From an uncultured Actinomycetes bacterium (GTDB lineage Bacteria; Actinomycetota; Acidimicrobiia; IMCC26256; DASPTH01): a stretch of 64,000 bases of DNA. The notes beneath the pieces were generated by a model, which was not told the origin of the DNA, ran no database searches, and saw only the letters and a program-made list of their open reading frames with translations. This document shows, piece by piece, positions 4,912-59,172 of the stretch. Within the stretch, counting starts at the first letter, position 1. Each line of letters opens with the position of its first letter. Both the position numbers and the translations under genes were made by a program. The stretch is taken from assembly GCA_963720765.1 (NCBI GenBank), contig CAVRGS010000007.1, positions 136,663 to 200,662 of the forward strand. The letters run 5' to 3'.

Positions 4912-4985
4912 CGGGGAGTGGCGCAGTTCGGCAGCGCACCTGCTTTGGGAGCAGGAGGTCGGGGGTTCAAATCCCCCCTCCCCGA
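4912..4985 (+). tRNA. tRNA-Pro (TGG)
   Basis: Cloverleaf CGGGGAG...CTCCCCG, anticodon arm CCTGC-TTTGGGA-GCAGG, T-loop GGTTCAAATCC. Confidence 0.97.
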
Positions 4986-5016
4986 CGCCACCAACGGTGG
5001 ATGTGATGCACGACAC

Positions 5017-5087
5017 GCGGGCGTAGCTCAATGGCAGAGCCTCAGACTTCCAATCTGATGACGCGGGTTCGATTCCCGTCGCCCGCT
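5017..5087 (+). tRNA. tRNA-Gly (TCC)
   Basis: GCGGGCG...CGCCCGC acceptor stem, anticodon arm TCAGA-CTTCCAA-TCTGA, T-loop GGTTCGATTCC. Confidence 0.97.
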
Positions 5088-6335: not shown

Positions 6336-6409
6336 CGCCCCCGGCAGGACTCGAACCTGCGGCCTGAAAGTTAGAAGCTTTCTGCTCTGTCCAGCTGAGC
6401 TACGGAGGC
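6336..6409 (-). tRNA. tRNA-Arg (TCT)
   Basis: Reverse complement GCCTCCGTAGCTCAGCTGGACAGAGCA-GAAAG-CTTCTAA-CTTTC-AGGCCGCAGGTTCGAGTCCTGCCGGGGGCG; uninterrupted, 74 nt. Confidence 0.96.
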
Positions 6410-15714: not shown

Positions 15715-15792
15715 GGTGGCCGTAGCTCAGTTGGCTAGAGCGCCGGGTTGTGGTCCCGGAGGTCGGGGGTTCGAAACCCCTCGGTCACCCCA
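15715..15792 (+). tRNA. tRNA-His (GTG)
   Basis: G-1 plus GTGGCCG...CGGTCAC-C-CCA, anticodon arm CCGGG-TTGTGGT-CCCGG, T-loop GGTTCGAAACC; TACAGT -10 upstream. Confidence 0.97.
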
Positions 15793-17979: not shown

Positions 17980-18056
17980 GCGCCCCTAGCTCAACTGGCT
18001 AGAGCAAATGACTCTTAATCATTAGGTTCCGGGTTCGAGTCCCGGGGGGCGTACCA
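17980..18056 (+). tRNA. tRNA-Lys (CTT)
   Basis: GCGCCCC...GGGGCGT-A-CCA, anticodon arm AATGA-CTCTTAA-TCATT, T-loop GGTTCGAGTCC; TAGATT -10 upstream. Confidence 0.97.
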
Positions 18057-55188: not shown

Positions 55189-55479
55189 TCAGCTCTCGAC
55201 GATCTCGCTGGTCTGCATGACCGGCTGGATGTCGGTGTAGTTGGCCACGTCGGCCATGATCGCCCCGGTGCCCTCGGCACCCATGGCTTCGCCGATGGCG
55301 TCGGTCGACGGGAAGAAGAAGTGCACCGCAGCCTCGTACGGGCCGTTCAGGCCCTTGTCGATCTCGACGCGCTCGACGCCCCAGGTCGACACCGCGAGCG
55401 GCACGTGCTTGTCGCGGTAGTAGTCGTGGTCGAACCTCGCACCGTCGGTCTTCGGGTACAGGACGCTGAGTCGGATCAT
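55189..55479 (-). CDS. EthD family protein
   Basis: MIRLSVLYPKTDGARFDHDYYRDKHVPL...IMADVANYTDIQPVMQTSEIV. Confidence 0.9.
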   Translation of the reverse strand: MIRLSVLYPKTDGARFDHDYYRDKHVPLAVSTWGVERVEIDKGLNGPYEAAVHFFFPSTDAIGEAMGAEGTGAIMADVANYTDIQPVMQTSEIVES

Positions 55480-55587
55480 CGCCGGAGTCTCGCACAGGAG
55501 CGGGCCGGGCGGCCATGGCCCGAGTCGCTCATCCCCACGTAACGTCGGATTCACCGGACGCGCACCACTTCGTCACAACGCCTGCGT

Positions 55588-55660
55588 ACGGTGCATCCCC
55601 AGGTGAGCCGGGAAGTCTGGTCGGCCTGCTGCCGGGGTGCACTCGGCGGCAGCACATCCG
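55588..55660 (+). ncRNA. Candidate cis-regulatory RNA (riboswitch-like) in the nhaA leader
   Basis: GGTGCATCCCCAGGTGAGCCGGGAAGTCTGGTCGGCCTGCTGCCGGGGTGCAC, with competing stems, immediately upstream of nhaA. Confidence 0.45.
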
Positions 55661-55683
55661 TCGAATGATGGGGTTGCAGCTCG

Positions 55684-56907
55684 ATGCCGGCCACCACCAC
55701 CGACGCGCCCGCGCGTCCCCGCCGCCGCCGTCCCTCGGCGGTCGGCGAGTTCCTGTCGACCGAGTCGCTCGGCGGCATCGTCCTCCTGACCGCGGTCGCA
55801 GCTGCCATCATCTGGGCGAACACCGCGCCGGGTGCGTACGGTGCGTTCTGGTCCACCGACCTGACCCTCGGCATCGGTGACCTCGCCGTCACCGAGACGC
55901 TCGCACACTGGGTGACCGAGGGGTTGATGACGATCTTCTTCTTCGTCGTCGGCCTCGAGATCAAGCGTGAGCTCGTGCGCGGCGAGCTCCGCGATCCTCG
56001 CCGGGCCGCGCTGCCGGCGATCGCGGCGGTCGGGGGCATGGTCGTGCCGGCGATCTGCTTCGTGCTGTTGAACCTCGGCAAGCCGACGGCCGACGGGTGG
56101 GGCATCCCGGTGGCCACCGACATCGCGTTCGCGGTGGCGGTGCTCGCACTGTTCGGCTCGCGGATCCCGCGGCCGCTCAAGGTGTTCCTGCTCACGCTGG
56201 CGATCGTCGACGACATCGGCGCGATCGTCGTGATCGCGATCTTCTACTCGCGCGGCGTGTCCGGCGCGTGGCTGCTCGCCGCGGCGCTCGTGGTGATGGG
56301 GATCGTCGCGATGCGACACCTCGGTGTGAGCCGCGTCGCGTGGTTCGTCGTCCCCGGTGCGGCGCTCTGGTACTGCTGCCTCGAGTCCGGGATCCATCCG
56401 ACCATCGCAGGCGTCGTCCTCGGCCTCCTGGCCCCCACCGGAGACGTCGGTGGCCGTCCGTTGCTGGAGCAGCTCGAGCACCGCTTGCACCCGTGGTCGA
56501 GCCTGCTCATCGTGCCCCTGTTCGCACTGGCGAGCGCAGGCGTCGTGCTCGACGTCGAGTCGCTGCGTCACGCCGCCGGGAGCTCGGTCACGTGGGGGGT
56601 CGTCGTGGGGCTCGTGGTCGGCAAGCCGCTGGGGATCCTCCTGGCGTGCGTCGTCGCGCTCCGGCTGCGGATCGGTCTGCTGCCGTCGCACGTGCGCCAC
56701 TCCCACCTGCTGGGCGCTGGTTGCCTCGCCGGCATCGGCTTCACGGTGTCGCTCTTCGTCGCCGATCTCGCGTTCCGGGGCGTGTGGTTGCGCGACGCCA
56801 AGCTCGGCATCCTCGCGGCGTCGATCACCAGCGCTGCGATCGGCGCCCTCGTGCTCGCCGTCCTCCCGTCGAAAAGGTCTGGCGCCCACGAGGAGGTGAC
56901 GCCATGA
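55684..56907 (+). CDS. nhaA: Na+/H+ antiporter NhaA
   Basis: GLMTIFFFVVGLEIKRE, GWGIPVATDIAF, LAIVDDIG (twin Asp), PLFALASAGV, VGKPLGI, GIGFTVSLF. Confidence 0.95.
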   Translation: MPATTTDAPARPRRRRPSAVGEFLSTESLGGIVLLTAVAAAIIWANTAPGAYGAFWSTDLTLGIGDLAVTETLAHWVTEGLMTIFFFVVGLEIKRELVRGELRDPRRAALPAIAAVGGMVVPAICFVLLNLGKPTADGWGIPVATDIAFAVAVLALFGSRIPRPLKVFLLTLAIVDDIGAIVVIAIFYSRGVSGAWLLAAALVVMGIVAMRHLGVSRVAWFVVPGAALWYCCLESGIHPTIAGVVLGLLAPTGDVGGRPLLEQLEHRLHPWSSLLIVPLFALASAGVVLDVESLRHAAGSSVTWGVVVGLVVGKPLGILLACVVALRLRIGLLPSHVRHSHLLGAGCLAGIGFTVSLFVADLAFRGVWLRDAKLGILAASITSAAIGALVLAVLPSKRSGAHEEVTP

Positions 56908-57389
56908 GCACCGTCGAGGTCCGCACACGCGACGACGGTGCGCAATGGCGCCTCGCCCGGTTCGTGGTCGTCCAGCCCGTCGACGACGCCGCCGAGCTCG
57001 ATCCGCCCGTGGAGCGGGCGATGCCCTTCGACGACGTCGAGCCGTGGCCGGTCCTGGACGCTGACGGGCTCCTGCGCTTTCGTGGTCGTTGGGTCGCGGT
57101 GCCTCCCGCGCAGGTCGCACTCGTGCGCGTCCTGCTCCACCGCTTCCAGTCCACGGTGTCGGACGACGAGCTCCTGACGACGTTCGCCACCGGCTCCTCG
57201 GCGGGATCGGCGCGCAAGCTCGCCGGTGCGATGCACCGGCTGCGGGGCCGGGTGGCGGAGTGCGGTCTGGTCCTGAGCCGCGTGCGCGCCCGCGGATACA
57301 TCCTCGACTACGCGCACGTACCCGTCATGGAGCCGTCAGAAGACGGTGCCACTCCGTCAGGTTCGGCGGTGAACCTGTCAGTCGACTGA
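56904..57389 (+). CDS. Winged-helix (OmpR/PhoB C-terminal-like) protein without a receiver domain
   Basis: LDADGLLRFRGRWVAVPP...LVRVLL...KLAGAMHRLRGRV...LSRVRARGYIL; ATGA overlap with nhaA. Confidence 0.7.
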   Translation: MSTVEVRTRDDGAQWRLARFVVVQPVDDAAELDPPVERAMPFDDVEPWPVLDADGLLRFRGRWVAVPPAQVALVRVLLHRFQSTVSDDELLTTFATGSSAGSARKLAGAMHRLRGRVAECGLVLSRVRARGYILDYAHVPVMEPSEDGATPSGSAVNLSVD

Positions 57390-57482: not shown

Positions 57483-58820
57483 GTGAAACTCAAACTGCTC
57501 CTGCTCCCGGCCCTGGCCCTCACGGTGCTCGGCGCCGGCGCATCACCCGCCTTCGCGGCGGACGGCGCCGCGAAGGTCCAGTCGATCCTCGACAACGTCT
57601 GGATCCTCGTCGCCGCCGTGCTCGTCATCTTCATGCAGGCCGGCTTCGCCCTGGTGGAAGCCGGCCTCACCCGGGGCAAGAACGTCAGCAACATCATGAT
57701 GAAGAACATGATGGACTTCTGCTGCGGCGTGCTCGCGTTCGCGCTGGTGGGCTTCACCATCGCGTTCGGCAAGGGCAACGACCTGTTCGGCCACACCGGC
57801 TGGATGCTCGACAGCAAGCAGTACGACTTCGGCAACCTCACGTTGCCCACGTACTTCATCTTCCAGGTGGCGTTCGCGGCGACGGCGGCAACCATCGTCT
57901 CCGGCGCGATGGCCGAACGGACGAAGTTCAAGAGCTACATCATCTACTCGGTGTTCATCACCGCGCTGGTGTACCCGGTCGTGGTGCACTGGGTGTGGGG
58001 CGGCGGGTGGCTCTCGCAGCTCGACACCCCGTTCGTCGACTTCGCCGGCTCCACCGTCGTGCACAGCGTCGGCGGCTGGGCCGCGCTGATGGGTGCGATG
58101 ATCCTCGGACCGCGCATCGGGAAGTACGGACCCGACGGCAAGCCGCGTGCGATCCCGGGGCACTCGGTGCCGTTCGCCATCGTCGGCGTGTTCATCCTGT
58201 TGGTCGGATGGTTCGGGTTCAATCCCGGTTCCGAACTGGCAGCCGACCTGGCGGTGACGACGATCGCCGTGACCACCGTGCTCGCGGCCGCCGCGGGGGC
58301 GGTGACCGGGATGATCACCATCTGGCTCATCAGCGGCAAACCAGACGTCGCCATGACCGGCAACGGTGTGCTGGCCGGGCTGGTCGGGATCACCGCGGGC
58401 TGCGCCAGCGTCAGCAACTGGGGTGCCGTGATCATCGGGGGCATCGCCGGCGTGATCGTGGTGTTGGCGGTGCTGTTCTTCGACCGCATCCGCATCGACG
58501 ACCCGGTCGGCGCGGTCTCCGTGCACGGTGTCTGCGGTGCATGGGGCACGCTCGCGGTGGGGCTCTTCGCCACCGAGGGCGGGCTGTTCTACGGCGACGG
58601 GGCCGACCAACTCCTCACCCAGGCGATCGCCGTGGTGGCGGTGTTCGCGTTCGTCGTGATCACCACCGGTGCGCTGTTCCTCGCGCTGAAGCACACCATC
58701 GGACTCCGGGTCAGCCCGGAGGAGGAGCTCGAAGGACTCGACGTCCACGAACACGGGGCGGCCGGCTACGGCCTCGAAGTCTTCCCGAGCGGTCCCGAGC
58801 CCACCCCCGTCGGCGCCTGA
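57483..58820 (+). CDS. amtB: Ammonium transporter
   Basis: FMQAGFALVEAG, FQVAFAATAATIVSGAMAER, DFAGSTVVH, GWFGFNPGS, IDDPVGAVSVHG, GLDVHEHG. Confidence 0.97.
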   Translation: MKLKLLLLPALALTVLGAGASPAFAADGAAKVQSILDNVWILVAAVLVIFMQAGFALVEAGLTRGKNVSNIMMKNMMDFCCGVLAFALVGFTIAFGKGNDLFGHTGWMLDSKQYDFGNLTLPTYFIFQVAFAATAATIVSGAMAERTKFKSYIIYSVFITALVYPVVVHWVWGGGWLSQLDTPFVDFAGSTVVHSVGGWAALMGAMILGPRIGKYGPDGKPRAIPGHSVPFAIVGVFILLVGWFGFNPGSELAADLAVTTIAVTTVLAAAAGAVTGMITIWLISGKPDVAMTGNGVLAGLVGITAGCASVSNWGAVIIGGIAGVIVVLAVLFFDRIRIDDPVGAVSVHGVCGAWGTLAVGLFATEGGLFYGDGADQLLTQAIAVVAVFAFVVITTGALFLALKHTIGLRVSPEEELEGLDVHEHGAAGYGLEVFPSGPEPTPVGA

Positions 58821-58833
58821 TCGAGGAGGATCT

Positions 58834-59172
58834 GTGCAGCTCATCACCGCCATCATCAAGTCGTACAAGATCGACGATGTGAAGGAGGCGCTCACGACAG
58901 CCGGTGCGACCGGCATCACCGTCAGCGACGTCAGGGGCTTCGGCCGCCAGGGCGGGCACACGGAGACCTACCGGGGCGCCGAGTACCGGGTCGACTTCCT
59001 GCCCAAGACCAAGCTCGAGGTCGTCGCCGACGACGCGCTGGCACCGGCGCTGGTCGAGGTGCTCGTCGCCGCCGCCCGGACCGGCAAGATCGGCGACGGC
59101 AAGGTCTGGGCGACCCCGGTCACCCGCCTGGTGCGGGTGCGGACCGGCGAGGAGGGCCCGGAGGCCGTCTAA
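58834..59172 (+). CDS. glnK: Nitrogen regulatory protein P-II
   Basis: GFGRQGGHTETYRGAEY, RTGKIGDGKVW, VRVRTGEEG; directly downstream of amtB. Confidence 0.95.
   Translation: MQLITAIIKSYKIDDVKEALTTAGATGITVSDVRGFGRQGGHTETYRGAEYRVDFLPKTKLEVVADDALAPALVEVLVAAARTGKIGDGKVWATPVTRLVRVRTGEEGPEAV

Follow-up and report, generated by a model that had tools for sequence, protein, structure and literature searches.

The DNA analysed here is a single stretch of 64,000 nt, called the window, and all coordinates are positions within it. It carries a gene for a Na+/H+ antiporter, nhaA, and the profile match given in Table 1 agrees with the preliminary description, which had recognized nhaA 3' of the leader. 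The intergenic gap before the gene measures 130-204 nt, depending on which start is chosen for a divergent EthD-like ORF, and nhaA is, as far as the sequence tells, the gene that would be under the control of this leader. An ORF of 161 aa overlapping the end of nhaA is probably co-transcribed with it. Its product shows a weak match to the OmpR/PhoB-type winged-helix domain (Trans_reg_C, E 7.6e-5, 23.1 bits against a cutoff of 26.2 bits), and it shares 59% identity with the 155 C-terminal aa of an NhaA fusion ORF (557 aa) from a genome of the same genus. Upstream of the promoter are three direct repeats, and TTCAC-n6-..-n6-GTCAY-like boxes are also present in orthologous leaders. These repeats, which resemble GlnR/PhoP boxes, possibly form a putative response-regulator site of the GlnR/PhoP/OmpR type and lie outside the RNA element. 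A -10-like hexamer follows, and transcription is predicted to start at around 55600-55602. A scan of the leader for E. coli-type promoters and terminators gave nothing, and no terminator-like site was seen. From its place 10-17 nt before the AUG, we infer that the purine-rich GAUGGGG is the Shine-Dalgarno (SD) site.

Table 1. Features in and around the nhaA leader, in window coordinates.
Feature	Position	Strand	Remarks
Three direct repeats TTCACC / CGCACC / GTCACA, 11-nt period	55550-55577	+	5' of promoter; read from sequence
-10-like hexamer TACGGT (TANNNT)	55587-55592	+	9 nt 5' of G1 of motif M
Motif M, GGUGAGCCGGGAAGUCUGGUCGGCC, 25 nt	55602-55626	+	near 5' end of leader
M 5' tail, G1-G4	55602-55605	+	conserved GGNG
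P1 5' strand, N5-G10	55606-55611	+	
P1 9-nt loop, GAAGUCUGG	55612-55620	+	
P1 3' strand, U20-N25	55621-55626	+	
Hairpin P2, CUGCUGCCG with CGGCGGCAG	55626-55634 with 55644-55652	+	
Block ACAUCCGUC, then purine-rich GAUGGGG	55654-55673	+	block invariant among orthologues (alignment)
nhaA, Na+/H+ antiporter, 407 aa	55684-56907	+	PF06965, E 1.2e-139, profile positions 2-374 of 374
GCCGGCC, counterpart of D in the window	55686-55692	+	complements G18-C24 (55619-55625)
161-aa ORF	56904-57389	+	overlaps nhaA stop (ATGA)

Near the 5' end of this leader lies motif M, which includes the core GAGCCGGGAAGTCTGGTCGGC already singled out in the preliminary description; the core is indeed present and conserved far above chance. 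The 18-mer of M occurs in 162 of the 264 genomes of the window's order, with one to four copies each, against four matches of a reversed-pattern control. M was found in three classes, Actinomycetes, Acidimicrobiia and Thermoleophilia, and single copies are in one Chloroflexota MAG and one Saccharimonadota MAG, the latter in AT-rich surroundings. Positions outside the searched 18-mer are also kept (G1 and G2 in 164/166 copies each, G4 in 162/166, C24 in 161/166), and 20 of the 25 positions, stem bases included, are nearly totally invariant across the three classes. Among the 27 NhaA loci of the family, nine have M (eight exact, one with one mismatch) and the remaining 18 have nothing M-like within four mismatches; the window's own genome has one copy in a 21-mer search allowing up to three mismatches. 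When the pattern is made one N longer than M, 401 genomes give 23 matches and the control 14, which shows the background rate. Twenty one-mismatch copies were examined. Five of them have the GGNGN prefix and a promoter context, and these include two true single-base variants (L213, G18C; L216, G9U) and three copies (L226-L228) that differ solely at the free position 15. One more copy (L217) has the prefix in an ambiguous context, and the other 14, without the prefix, are in apparent coding regions.

What kinds of genes follow such a motif? A same-strand downstream gene is assignable for 136 of 164 copies. As the first gene after M, NhaA appears 79 times, CPA exchangers (PF00999) 17 times, DUF2254 proteins 10 times, Na/Ca exchangers 6 times and small CBS-pair proteins 5 times among the 164 copies, and other genes after M are those for Mrp, TrkH, NatA-like ABC and AmtB proteins. 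A set of 42 metagenomic variants adds NhaA (30), Kup (3) and an Na/Ca exchanger (1). The genes linked to M are predicted to be monovalent-cation transporters that are not homologous to one another. M always reads toward the gene, and its presence before many nhaA homologues and other cation transporters speaks for the view put forward in the preliminary description, that a riboswitch-like leader precedes nhaA; of the two options named there, a variant or a new class, a new class is the likely one. Kept nearly letter for letter across actinobacteria before cation-transporter genes, M looks like an undescribed RNA switch. It is undescribed in the open literature on nhaA riboswitches, Na+/Li+ riboswitch classes, Streptomyces nhaA and DUF2254, and as a letter string it has no literature match; nor did a term search find any mention of it in PMC11109978, PMC8632094 and the preprint 10.64898/2026.10.21.760802.

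The distance between M and the promoter is nearly constant. A TANNNT hexamer lies 5-9 nt 5' of G1 in 105 of 159 copies, in all 105 at spacers of 6-9 nt, while a control window 25-29 nt upstream contains it in 6/159 and one downstream in none. This spacing would make M the 5'-terminal part of the mRNA, the leader RNA and its start site being themselves predicted from the DNA. In the window, too, M is just 3' of the -10 element, so the predicted start is not downstream of it.

M can fold into a hairpin, P1, with the pairs Y5-R25 (a wobble), G6-C24, N7-N23, C8-G22, G9-C21 and G10-U20 around the invariant 9-nt loop GAAGNCUGG. Metagenomes were scanned for variant stems with C7 forbidden and positions 8, 22 and 23 left free. 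Positions 7 and 23 pair in all 73 promoter-bearing variants (U:A 60, A:U 8, G:C 1, U:G 4), and C8:G22 is retained in 72 of these; among 40 matches without TANNNT, 7:23 pairs in 25 and 8:22 is scattered. Such variant stems are absent from the window's own order (0/264 genomes), and the 7:23 changes are therefore lineage-bound. Positions 5 and 25 also co-vary, in an unusual manner: U:G (67/82) and C:A (37/43) prevail with an MI of 0.416, and Watson-Crick combinations are rare (U:A 10, C:G 3), the sum of 13 in 166 copies comparing with about 54 expected from marginal frequencies. The metagenome set repeats this (U:G 46, C:A 15, other 12), and on the NhaA tree eight independent pairs give about 5.8 changes in the same way against 0 in the other way, with a median p of 0.03. 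G6, G9, G10, U20, C21, C24 and the whole loop are invariant in the collected copies (C24 in 161/166), partly because the search patterns fixed stem and loop positions; since these do not vary, covariation is limited to 7:23 and 5:25.

Several other readings of the same 25 nt were considered and ruled out. RNAalifold and RNAfold favour another register (G6-U20, C7-G19, C8-G18, G9-U17, G10-C16), which is rejected because the fixed G19 is no partner for the A7 or G7 of the variants, and 7:23 is paired in 73/73. A two-tier G-quadruplex from the four GG runs, considered as a K+/Na+ sensor, is rejected because A23 in 60 variant copies breaks the fourth run. A leaderless small ORF starting from GUG at positions 2-4 is rejected as well, because 41 of 166 copies have a base other than U at N3 and because the variable positions fall on codon positions 1 and 2, third positions being invariant. 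Pairing of the GGNG tail with the loop, which would make M a pseudoknot, is a conjecture; positions 3 and 15 show no covariation (MI 0.03).

The 3' strand of P1 has a second possible partner. CCGACC, called D, is complementary to this strand and occurs within 90 nt downstream of M in 54 of 159 copies, as compared with 6 on the upstream side, 9 for the reverse complement and a mean of 12.3 in shuffles (maximum 22); the shorter CGACC is in 78/159. Its distance from M varies from 3 to 87 nt, and in 47 of 51 modelled leaders the SD follows it after 0-10 nt. The base 5' of CGACC tracks position 23 of M: with G23 it is C in 53 copies and T in 13, with A23 it is T in 22 and C in 10 (Fisher odds ratio 9.0, p 3.7e-6). 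A recognisable D is present in about one third to one half of the copies only, and many leaders have the SD 3-15 nt behind M, too close for an expression platform to fit between them. In the window the counterpart of D covers the last base of the start codon, G, together with the six nt that follow; a 7/7 complement (G-U allowed) beginning 2 nt into the start codon is found in five of eight orthologues, and a sixth has the canonical GCCGACC at -8. Duplex energies show the 3' strand of P1 to pair with the downstream leader slightly better than shuffles (-11.63 vs -10.80 kcal/mol). For the 5' strand the energy is no better than in shuffles (-9.70 vs -10.03 kcal/mol), and capture of the SD by this strand is rejected on that ground. 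Nearest-neighbour models in which either state was forced gave the same openness of the SD and start, 0.45 vs 0.45, in 51 leaders, and mixed results in the eight orthologues.

How does the rest of the leader compare? The interval as a whole folds no better than chance (MFE z = -0.52, equalled by 60 of 200 shuffles), and sub-stretches of the leader have z values from -1.4 to +0.3 against shuffles. The strings quoted in the preliminary description are all at their places, GTGCATCCCC at 55591-55600, GGGGTGCAC at 55634-55642, TGCTGCCG at 55627-55634 and CGGCAGCA at 55647-55654, and the folds drawn from them fared differently. The first helix, GTGCATCCCC with GGGGTGCAC, supposed to enclose the core, has 54.5% of cells paired over eight orthologous leaders, a value reached by 239 of 500 shuffles; it is unsupported also because its place is over, or 5' of, the -10 element and the start of transcription as predicted. 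The second helix, TGCTGCCG with CGGCAGCA, does exist, in a register shifted by 3 nt: as drawn, 85.9% of cells are paired, and P2, in the shifted register, has 98.6% paired in the eight leaders (18 of 500 shuffles reach this), and in two of the eight a C-G pair is replaced by U-A, both strands having changed. P2 appears from this alignment to be a lineage-specific hairpin. With the enclosing helix unconserved, the two competing folds do not stand as they were drawn. The actual competitors are P1 and the helix between M and D, and it is these two mutually exclusive helices that show base-pair covariation, by which the proposed folds were to be judged.

Putting these together, the nhaA mRNA very probably begins with M, which would act in cis as a two-state RNA switch setting the expression of nhaA. 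In one state M would fold on itself into P1; in the other, the 3' strand of P1 (GGUCGGC) would pair instead with the complementary segment farther downstream, which would lie 0-10 nt before the SD in most lineages and over the start codon in the window. The choice between the states would set the output of nhaA, and probably that of co-transcribed genes too, most likely at the step of translation initiation. The forced-state models, with equal openness of the SD and start, favour neither sign nor any one step of this control. We favour a scheme in which P1 would be the sensor, stabilised by its trigger to give the ON state, and the trigger would be a monovalent cation that the RNA binds directly, either Na+ or Li+. 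The ion pocket might then be made up of the loop, which is invariant, of the GGNG tail and of the wobble pairs under selection. As the trigger, a protein dedicated to binding this RNA comes close to the cation in likelihood. Only tentatively, at less than even confidence, do we propose M as the aptamer of a new class of alkali-metal-ion riboswitches of about 25 nt, spread phylum-wide in Actinomycetota and binding Na+ (or Li+) directly.

If a protein reads the same hairpin, M would be the site of a trans-acting RNA-binding regulator that responds to Na+, pH or osmotic state, and the RNA would bind no ion. We regard this as possible, though less likely than not. Twenty nearly invariant positions out of 25 over three classes fit sequence-specific recognition of a small hairpin by a protein, and 21 nt is very little for a hairpin that is to form a selective alkali-ion pocket; where M is 3-15 nt from the SD without D, as in many leaders, steric repression would suffice, and CBS-pair proteins come first after M in 5/164 copies. 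On the other side, no known family of RNA-binding regulators is among the 136 assigned downstream genes, the copy in the Saccharimonadota MAG would, once transferred, depend on the protein as well, and both the set of transporters and the layout of an aptamer with an alternative helix match known Na+/Li+ riboswitches as described in PMC9646797, PMC5737381 and PMC9337991. A hairpin of this kind could also do its work without switching, as a constitutive 5'-terminal stem-loop that stabilises the mRNA against 5'-end-dependent RNases or enhances translation. The location at the extreme 5' end with a 4-nt overhang only, the lack of D in many copies and the unchanged openness of the SD in the modelled switch agree with such a role. 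However, for a stabiliser a helix is enough, and it has no use for a loop and 5' tail that never vary or for a selected wobble pair; neither the restriction to one functional class of genes nor a co-varying alternative partner is expected of it, which makes this role improbable.

Could M then act as DNA? A conserved transcription factor bound to double-stranded DNA from +1 to +25 would block RNA polymerase, and the fixed distance to the -10 element, the extreme invariance of the sequence and the partly palindromic arms (GCCG...CGGC) are what one would look for in its operator. The co-change of 7:23 keeps the half-sites identical and the variants are lineage-bound, as in co-evolution of factor and operator; indeed, a palindromic operator co-evolving with its protein could mimic the 7:23 change taken alone. 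But the 9-bp centre is asymmetric and yet invariant, and the changes at 5:25 (U:G or C:A), the invariant G10:U20 and, in part, 7:23 (U7:G23 in 4/73) are wobbles in RNA and asymmetries in DNA. D, lying near the SD 3-87 nt away and co-varying with position 23, has no reason in a DNA site, and no transcription-factor gene is first after M in the 136 assigned copies. M also carries about 40 bits, far above the usual information of an operator. We consider a DNA operator very improbable.

The preferred reading, a cis-acting RNA switch, calls for comparison with known RNAs, and the window and its relatives were compared with all 4227 families of Rfam 15 by cmscan. At the gathering score the whole window gave five tRNAs only. 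Positions 55400-55800 (401 nt), searched at E up to 10, gave one chance lncRNA match (E 4.6) and no nhaA-I, nhaA-II or DUF1646, so that the likeness to nhaA-I suggested in the preliminary description found no counterpart in these models. In 20 other M loci, searched at E up to 1, no family matched over M; the same search detected c-di-AMP and fluoride riboswitches in those loci, and the method therefore works there.

Small RNAs read in leaders are known in other forms. Small H-type or hairpin aptamers of the preQ1-I type are tiny, have nearly all their nucleotides conserved and control translation via a shared strand. M resembles them in size, in conservation and in the strand shared with an alternative helix, with no relation in sequence. 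ANTAR-target RNAs are two tandem hairpins with hexaloops, located in actinobacterial leaders at translation starts and read by a protein. M is like them a small conserved hairpin of a leader, but only this one hairpin is conserved, and its loop has 9 nt; P2, which comes after it in the window, is lineage-specific.

Closest in setting are nhaA-I (Li+-I/Na+-II, RF03057) and nhaA-II (Li+-II), which are cis leaders before nhaA and other monovalent-cation transporters, in which a conserved sensor is followed by an expression platform and the exporter is expected to be on as the cation rises (White et al., 2022, PMC9646797; Weinberg et al., 2017, PMC5737381). Na+-I (DUF1646) has a comparably mixed, non-homologous set of Na+-related genes, in which antiporters stand beside pumps driven by ATP and membrane proteins whose function is unknown (White et al., 2022, PMC9337991). 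M shares with all three its placement in leaders before nhaA or other Na+/Li+ transporters, and appears to have both a structured sensor domain supported by covariation and an expression-platform helix that would exclude the sensor helix, as riboswitch-type RNAs do. Is M, then, a divergent member of one of these families? The common association with nhaA and other Na+ transporters would suit membership, but none of the 4227 models matches over M, and the architecture is different: M, right at the 5' end, consists of one hairpin of 21 nt preceded by a tail of 4 nt, without a two-stem aptamer and without a terminator in the leader, while nhaA-I and DUF1646 are described as having P1 and P2 stems and nhaA-II as unrelated to both (PMC9646797, PMC5737381). 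M is found in Actinomycetota, whereas the validated examples of nhaA-I and nhaA-II that are named in the paper come from Proteobacteria (White et al., 2022, PMC9646797). Unlike Na+-I, M lies in other taxa and its gene set includes DUF2254, AmtB, Kup and TrkH. Membership in one of these families is therefore extremely improbable.

Antibiotic producers belong to the actinobacteria, as do many species that live in soil or with hosts, and to our knowledge no mechanism by which they sense sodium is known. In bacteria generally, only one protein has been shown to be selective for Na+ sensing, and the known Na+ riboswitch class is called relatively rare, as stated in one report (PMC9337991). Here, one element of 25 nt recurs in three classes, and in one order over half of the genomes sampled have their cation-homeostasis regulon marked by it. 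If the proposed riboswitch class is real, M would govern the genes with which Streptomyces, Nocardia, Mycolicibacterium, Micrococcales, Acidimicrobiia and others extrude Na+ and take up K+, and if it is true that the RNA binds the ion itself, M would be among the smallest natural aptamers. It would offer a sensor that can be tested directly, a regulatory part of very small size for use in high-GC hosts, and a ready genomic marker for genes of Na+/K+ homeostasis, including those of the uncharacterised DUF2254 family.

When the 204-nt intergenic region 5′ of nhaA was compared by BLAST with 61 related genomes, only about 25 nt of it were matched outside the closest relatives, and these are 96-100% identical in other families and often present in several copies per genome. 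This core, here called M and numbered from G1 to position 25, occurs once in the window's own genome. In a set of 264 genomes of the order, which includes six unpublished ones (G068, G069, G085, G086, G106 and G107), its 18-mer GCCGGGAAGYCTGGTCGG was found with at most one mismatch in 162, against 4 matches of a reversed-pattern control. When each species was represented by one genome, a scan gave at least 124 stretches, with at least 92 in Actinomycetes, 11 in Acidimicrobiia and 8 in Thermoleophilia among the members with a class named; outside Actinomycetota, the matches listed include one Chloroflexota and one Saccharimonadota MAG. Conservation extends beyond the 18-mer used for searching (G1 and G2 in 164 of 166 copies each, G4 in 162, C24 in 161); position 5 is G in none of the 166, and position 25 is A or G in 148. 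Presence of M before NhaA is all-or-none: among 27 NhaA loci of the family, 8 have an exact M and one has a single mismatch, while the 260 nt upstream of the other 18 contain nothing M-like at 4 mismatches or fewer. The Candidatus Saccharimonadota MAG (L182) has an exact GC-rich M, with GGCGC prefix and C:A pair, although the leader that holds it is AT-rich; the gene that follows is NhaA-like. This copy points to transfer from actinobacteria, the hosts of the Saccharibacteria group to which the MAG belongs.

In actinobacteria, a promoter is often little more than a TANNNT -10 element. Such a hexamer lies 5-9 nt 5′ of G1 in 105 of 159 copies, in all 105 at spacers of 6-9; the control window has one in 6 of 159, and none was found downstream. 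From this spacing, the predicted transcript should open with the 25 nt of M.

Features of the nhaA locus and tRNA genes in the window
Feature	Position	Strand	Evidence or remark
tRNA genes (five)	4912-5087, 6336-6409, 15716-15789, 17980-18053		Rfam
Three direct repeats, 11-nt spacing	55550-55577	+	TTCACC, CGCACC, GTCACA; precede nhaA promoter
-10-like hexamer	55587-55592		TACGGT
M	55602-55626		25-nt core of nhaA leader
nhaA	55684-56907	+	Full-length NhaA Na+/H+ antiporter; PF06965, E 1.2e-139
161-aa ORF	56904-57389	+	Overlaps nhaA stop codon (ATGA); weakly matched to an OmpR/PhoB-type winged helix (Trans_reg_C, E 7.6e-5, under the cutoff)
amtB	57483-58820		Downstream of nhaA; PF00909
P-II gene	58834-59172		Downstream of nhaA; PF00543

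Judged by covariation, M is an RNA hairpin, P1, predicted to pair positions 5-10 with 20-25 around a 9-nt loop. Because M hardly varies, metagenomes were searched with a pattern in which C was barred at position 7 and positions 8, 22 and 23 were left free. At least 118 stretches were obtained, and among the matches listed 113 are distinct, 73 of them with a correctly spaced TANNNT. Pairing of 7:23 is kept in every one of these 73 (U:A 60, A:U 8, G:C 1, U:G 4) and C8:G22 is retained in 72, whereas in the 40 listed matches without TANNNT, an internal control, 7:23 pairs in 25 and 8:22 is scattered. At 5:25 the covariation is of wobble type, U:G in 67/82 and C:A in 37/43 with Watson-Crick combinations rare, and its mutual information of 0.416 is the highest long-range value in the M alignment; in the independent metagenome set, the matches listed have U:G 46 times, C:A 15 and others 12. 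Traced on a tree built from 57 NhaA proteins, position 5 has changed at least 10 times; of 8 independent pairs, about 5.8 have position 25 changing along with it and 0 have it changing the opposite way (median p 0.03). The window has A5:C25, in which C25 doubles as the first pair of a lineage-specific hairpin.

The 3′ strand of P1 has a second candidate partner, and pairing with it would exclude P1. CCGACC, the complement of G18-G23, occurs within 90 nt downstream of M in 54 of 159 copies; the corresponding counts are 6 for the upstream side, 9 for the opposite strand and a mean of 12.3 (maximum 22) for shuffles. Its distance from M varies from 3 to 87 nt, and in 47 of 51 leaders modelled it lies 0-10 nt 5′ of the Shine-Dalgarno sequence. 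The base of this distal element opposite position 23 is C 53 times and T 13 times for G23, and T 22 times and C 10 times for A23 (odds ratio 9.0, p 3.7e-6, Fisher); the A7:U23 variants listed have the partner CGACG directly 5′ of AAAGG. In the window and 4 of 7 orthologues GCCGGCC, or a G-U variant, begins on the start codon's G, and in a sixth orthologue GCCGACC is located at -8. Because position 23 is tied to two alternative partners, and both co-vary with it, we regard this as the hallmark of an RNA switch.

What kind of switch would it be? In forced-state modelling the alternative state comes out as the more stable one, by about 9 kcal/mol, and neither state was seen to open the ribosome-binding site, no terminator-like site was found in the leader, and about half of the M copies have no recognisable distal element. 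For these reasons M is proposed only in general terms as a translational (or stability) switch. P1 is favoured as the ON state, which a putative trigger would stabilise, because of the analogy with Li+/Na+ riboswitches and because the alternative helix would cover the start codon in the window.

The preliminary description had drawn two other helices in competition. All the strings that it quoted are indeed present where it placed them, and its interval folds no better than shuffles (MFE z -0.52). Leaders of eight orthologues, drawn from the genus and family of the window, were aligned. The share of paired cells is 54.5% for the enclosing helix (55591-600 with 55634-42), a value equalled by shuffles. 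For the second helix it is 85.9% in its own register, and for 55626-34 with 55644-52 it is 98.6% with one compensatory pair, so that a hairpin was correctly seen there with its register 3 nt off. From the pairing of both helices in this alignment, the hairpin is real but the competition as drawn is not.

A likeness to nhaA-I had also been suggested. No Rfam 15 family matches M, in the window or in the other M loci scanned, and a covariance-model check of nhaA-I, nhaA-II and DUF1646 gave no match to it; at the gathering score, only the five tRNA genes were matched in the whole window. The same run picked up c-di-AMP and fluoride riboswitches elsewhere in M loci, namely a fluoride riboswitch (L063:1616-1678, plus strand, 39.7 bits) divergent from a cation/proton exchanger gene led by M, and a c-di-AMP riboswitch (L076:2496-2666, minus strand, 63 bits) about 1 kb away from another M copy. 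In the available portions of the papers, the architectures of the motifs nhaA-I, nhaA-II and DUF1646 differ from that of M (PMC9646797, PMC5737381, PMC9337991). A term search of the available text of Breaker-lab genome surveys (PMC11109978, PMC8632094) and a 2026 preprint (10.64898/2026.10.21.760802) gave no such nhaA/antiporter motif, and a literature search for M as a letter string gave nothing relevant. From these negatives and differences, M appears to work, by analogy, like the known alkali-ion riboswitches, and it belongs to none of their families. The earlier interpretation as a riboswitch-like leader, possibly of a new class, holds, with a core that is real and unusually well conserved; its particular helices and the suggested likeness to nhaA-I fail.

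Around nhaA, the divergent upstream neighbour is a small EthD-like ORF (PF07110, E 6.5e-5), and a dienelactone-hydrolase-like ORF is the next gene past it. A 155-aa homologue of the 161-aa ORF (59% identity) is fused in frame with NhaA into a 557-aa ORF in a genome of the same genus (L230:1018-2691, minus strand); the ORF in the window may be a transporter-tethered DNA-binding domain or reflect a frameshift. The direct repeats, to which similar boxes exist in orthologous leaders, resemble GlnR/PhoP-type response-regulator sites. Since amtB and the P-II gene come after nhaA, the operon may be under nitrogen control too, or the winged-helix ORF may control it. Another NhaA paralogue is encoded in the window's genome (G000:C2:202058-203221, minus strand, 58% identity); it is of the type found in most genomes of the family and has no M-like sequence.

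Which genes follow M? The count covers 164 copies that have a GGNGN prefix, including two, L040 and L041, from unpublished genomes, and takes for each the first plausible same-strand gene downstream. This gene encodes NhaA in 79 (78 by phmmer, 1 by Pfam), PF00999 cation/proton exchangers in 17, DUF2254 in 10, the Na/Ca exchanger family in 6, CBS-pair proteins in 5, AmtB and ABC ATPases in 4 each, cation-efflux (CDF), Mrp-like (one weak) and PPDK_N proteins in 2 each, and TrkH, CitMHS, SulP, an amino-acid permease and peptidase S15 in 1 each; 28 are without family assignment, and no transcription factor is among the assigned first genes. In four genomes of the window's order (L008, L010, L013, L036) M lies 110-230 nt 5′ of amtB with no nhaA between, which may be left over from an nhaA-amtB operon of the kind seen in the window or may reflect a true ammonium link. 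In two loci of the window's genus (L006, L007), leaders near-identical to the window's, with M, the P2 hairpin and the ACAUCCGUC block, precede ORFs of 172 and 198 aa, respectively, that are not NhaA and have no Pfam match. Among the metagenome variants listed, 64 are followed by an ORF of at least 45 aa, and the 42 of these scanned gave NhaA 30 times, Kup 3, weak Usp 2, CBS 2, Na/Ca exchanger 1, DUF2061 1 and no family 3. The A7:U23 variant occurs in leaders of lower GC content ahead of Kup-type K+ uptake genes (L265, L275, L318 and similar metagenome loci). Judged by these predicted genes, Na+ extrusion systems dominate the set after M, and the Kup loci would link M to K+ uptake besides Na+ export.
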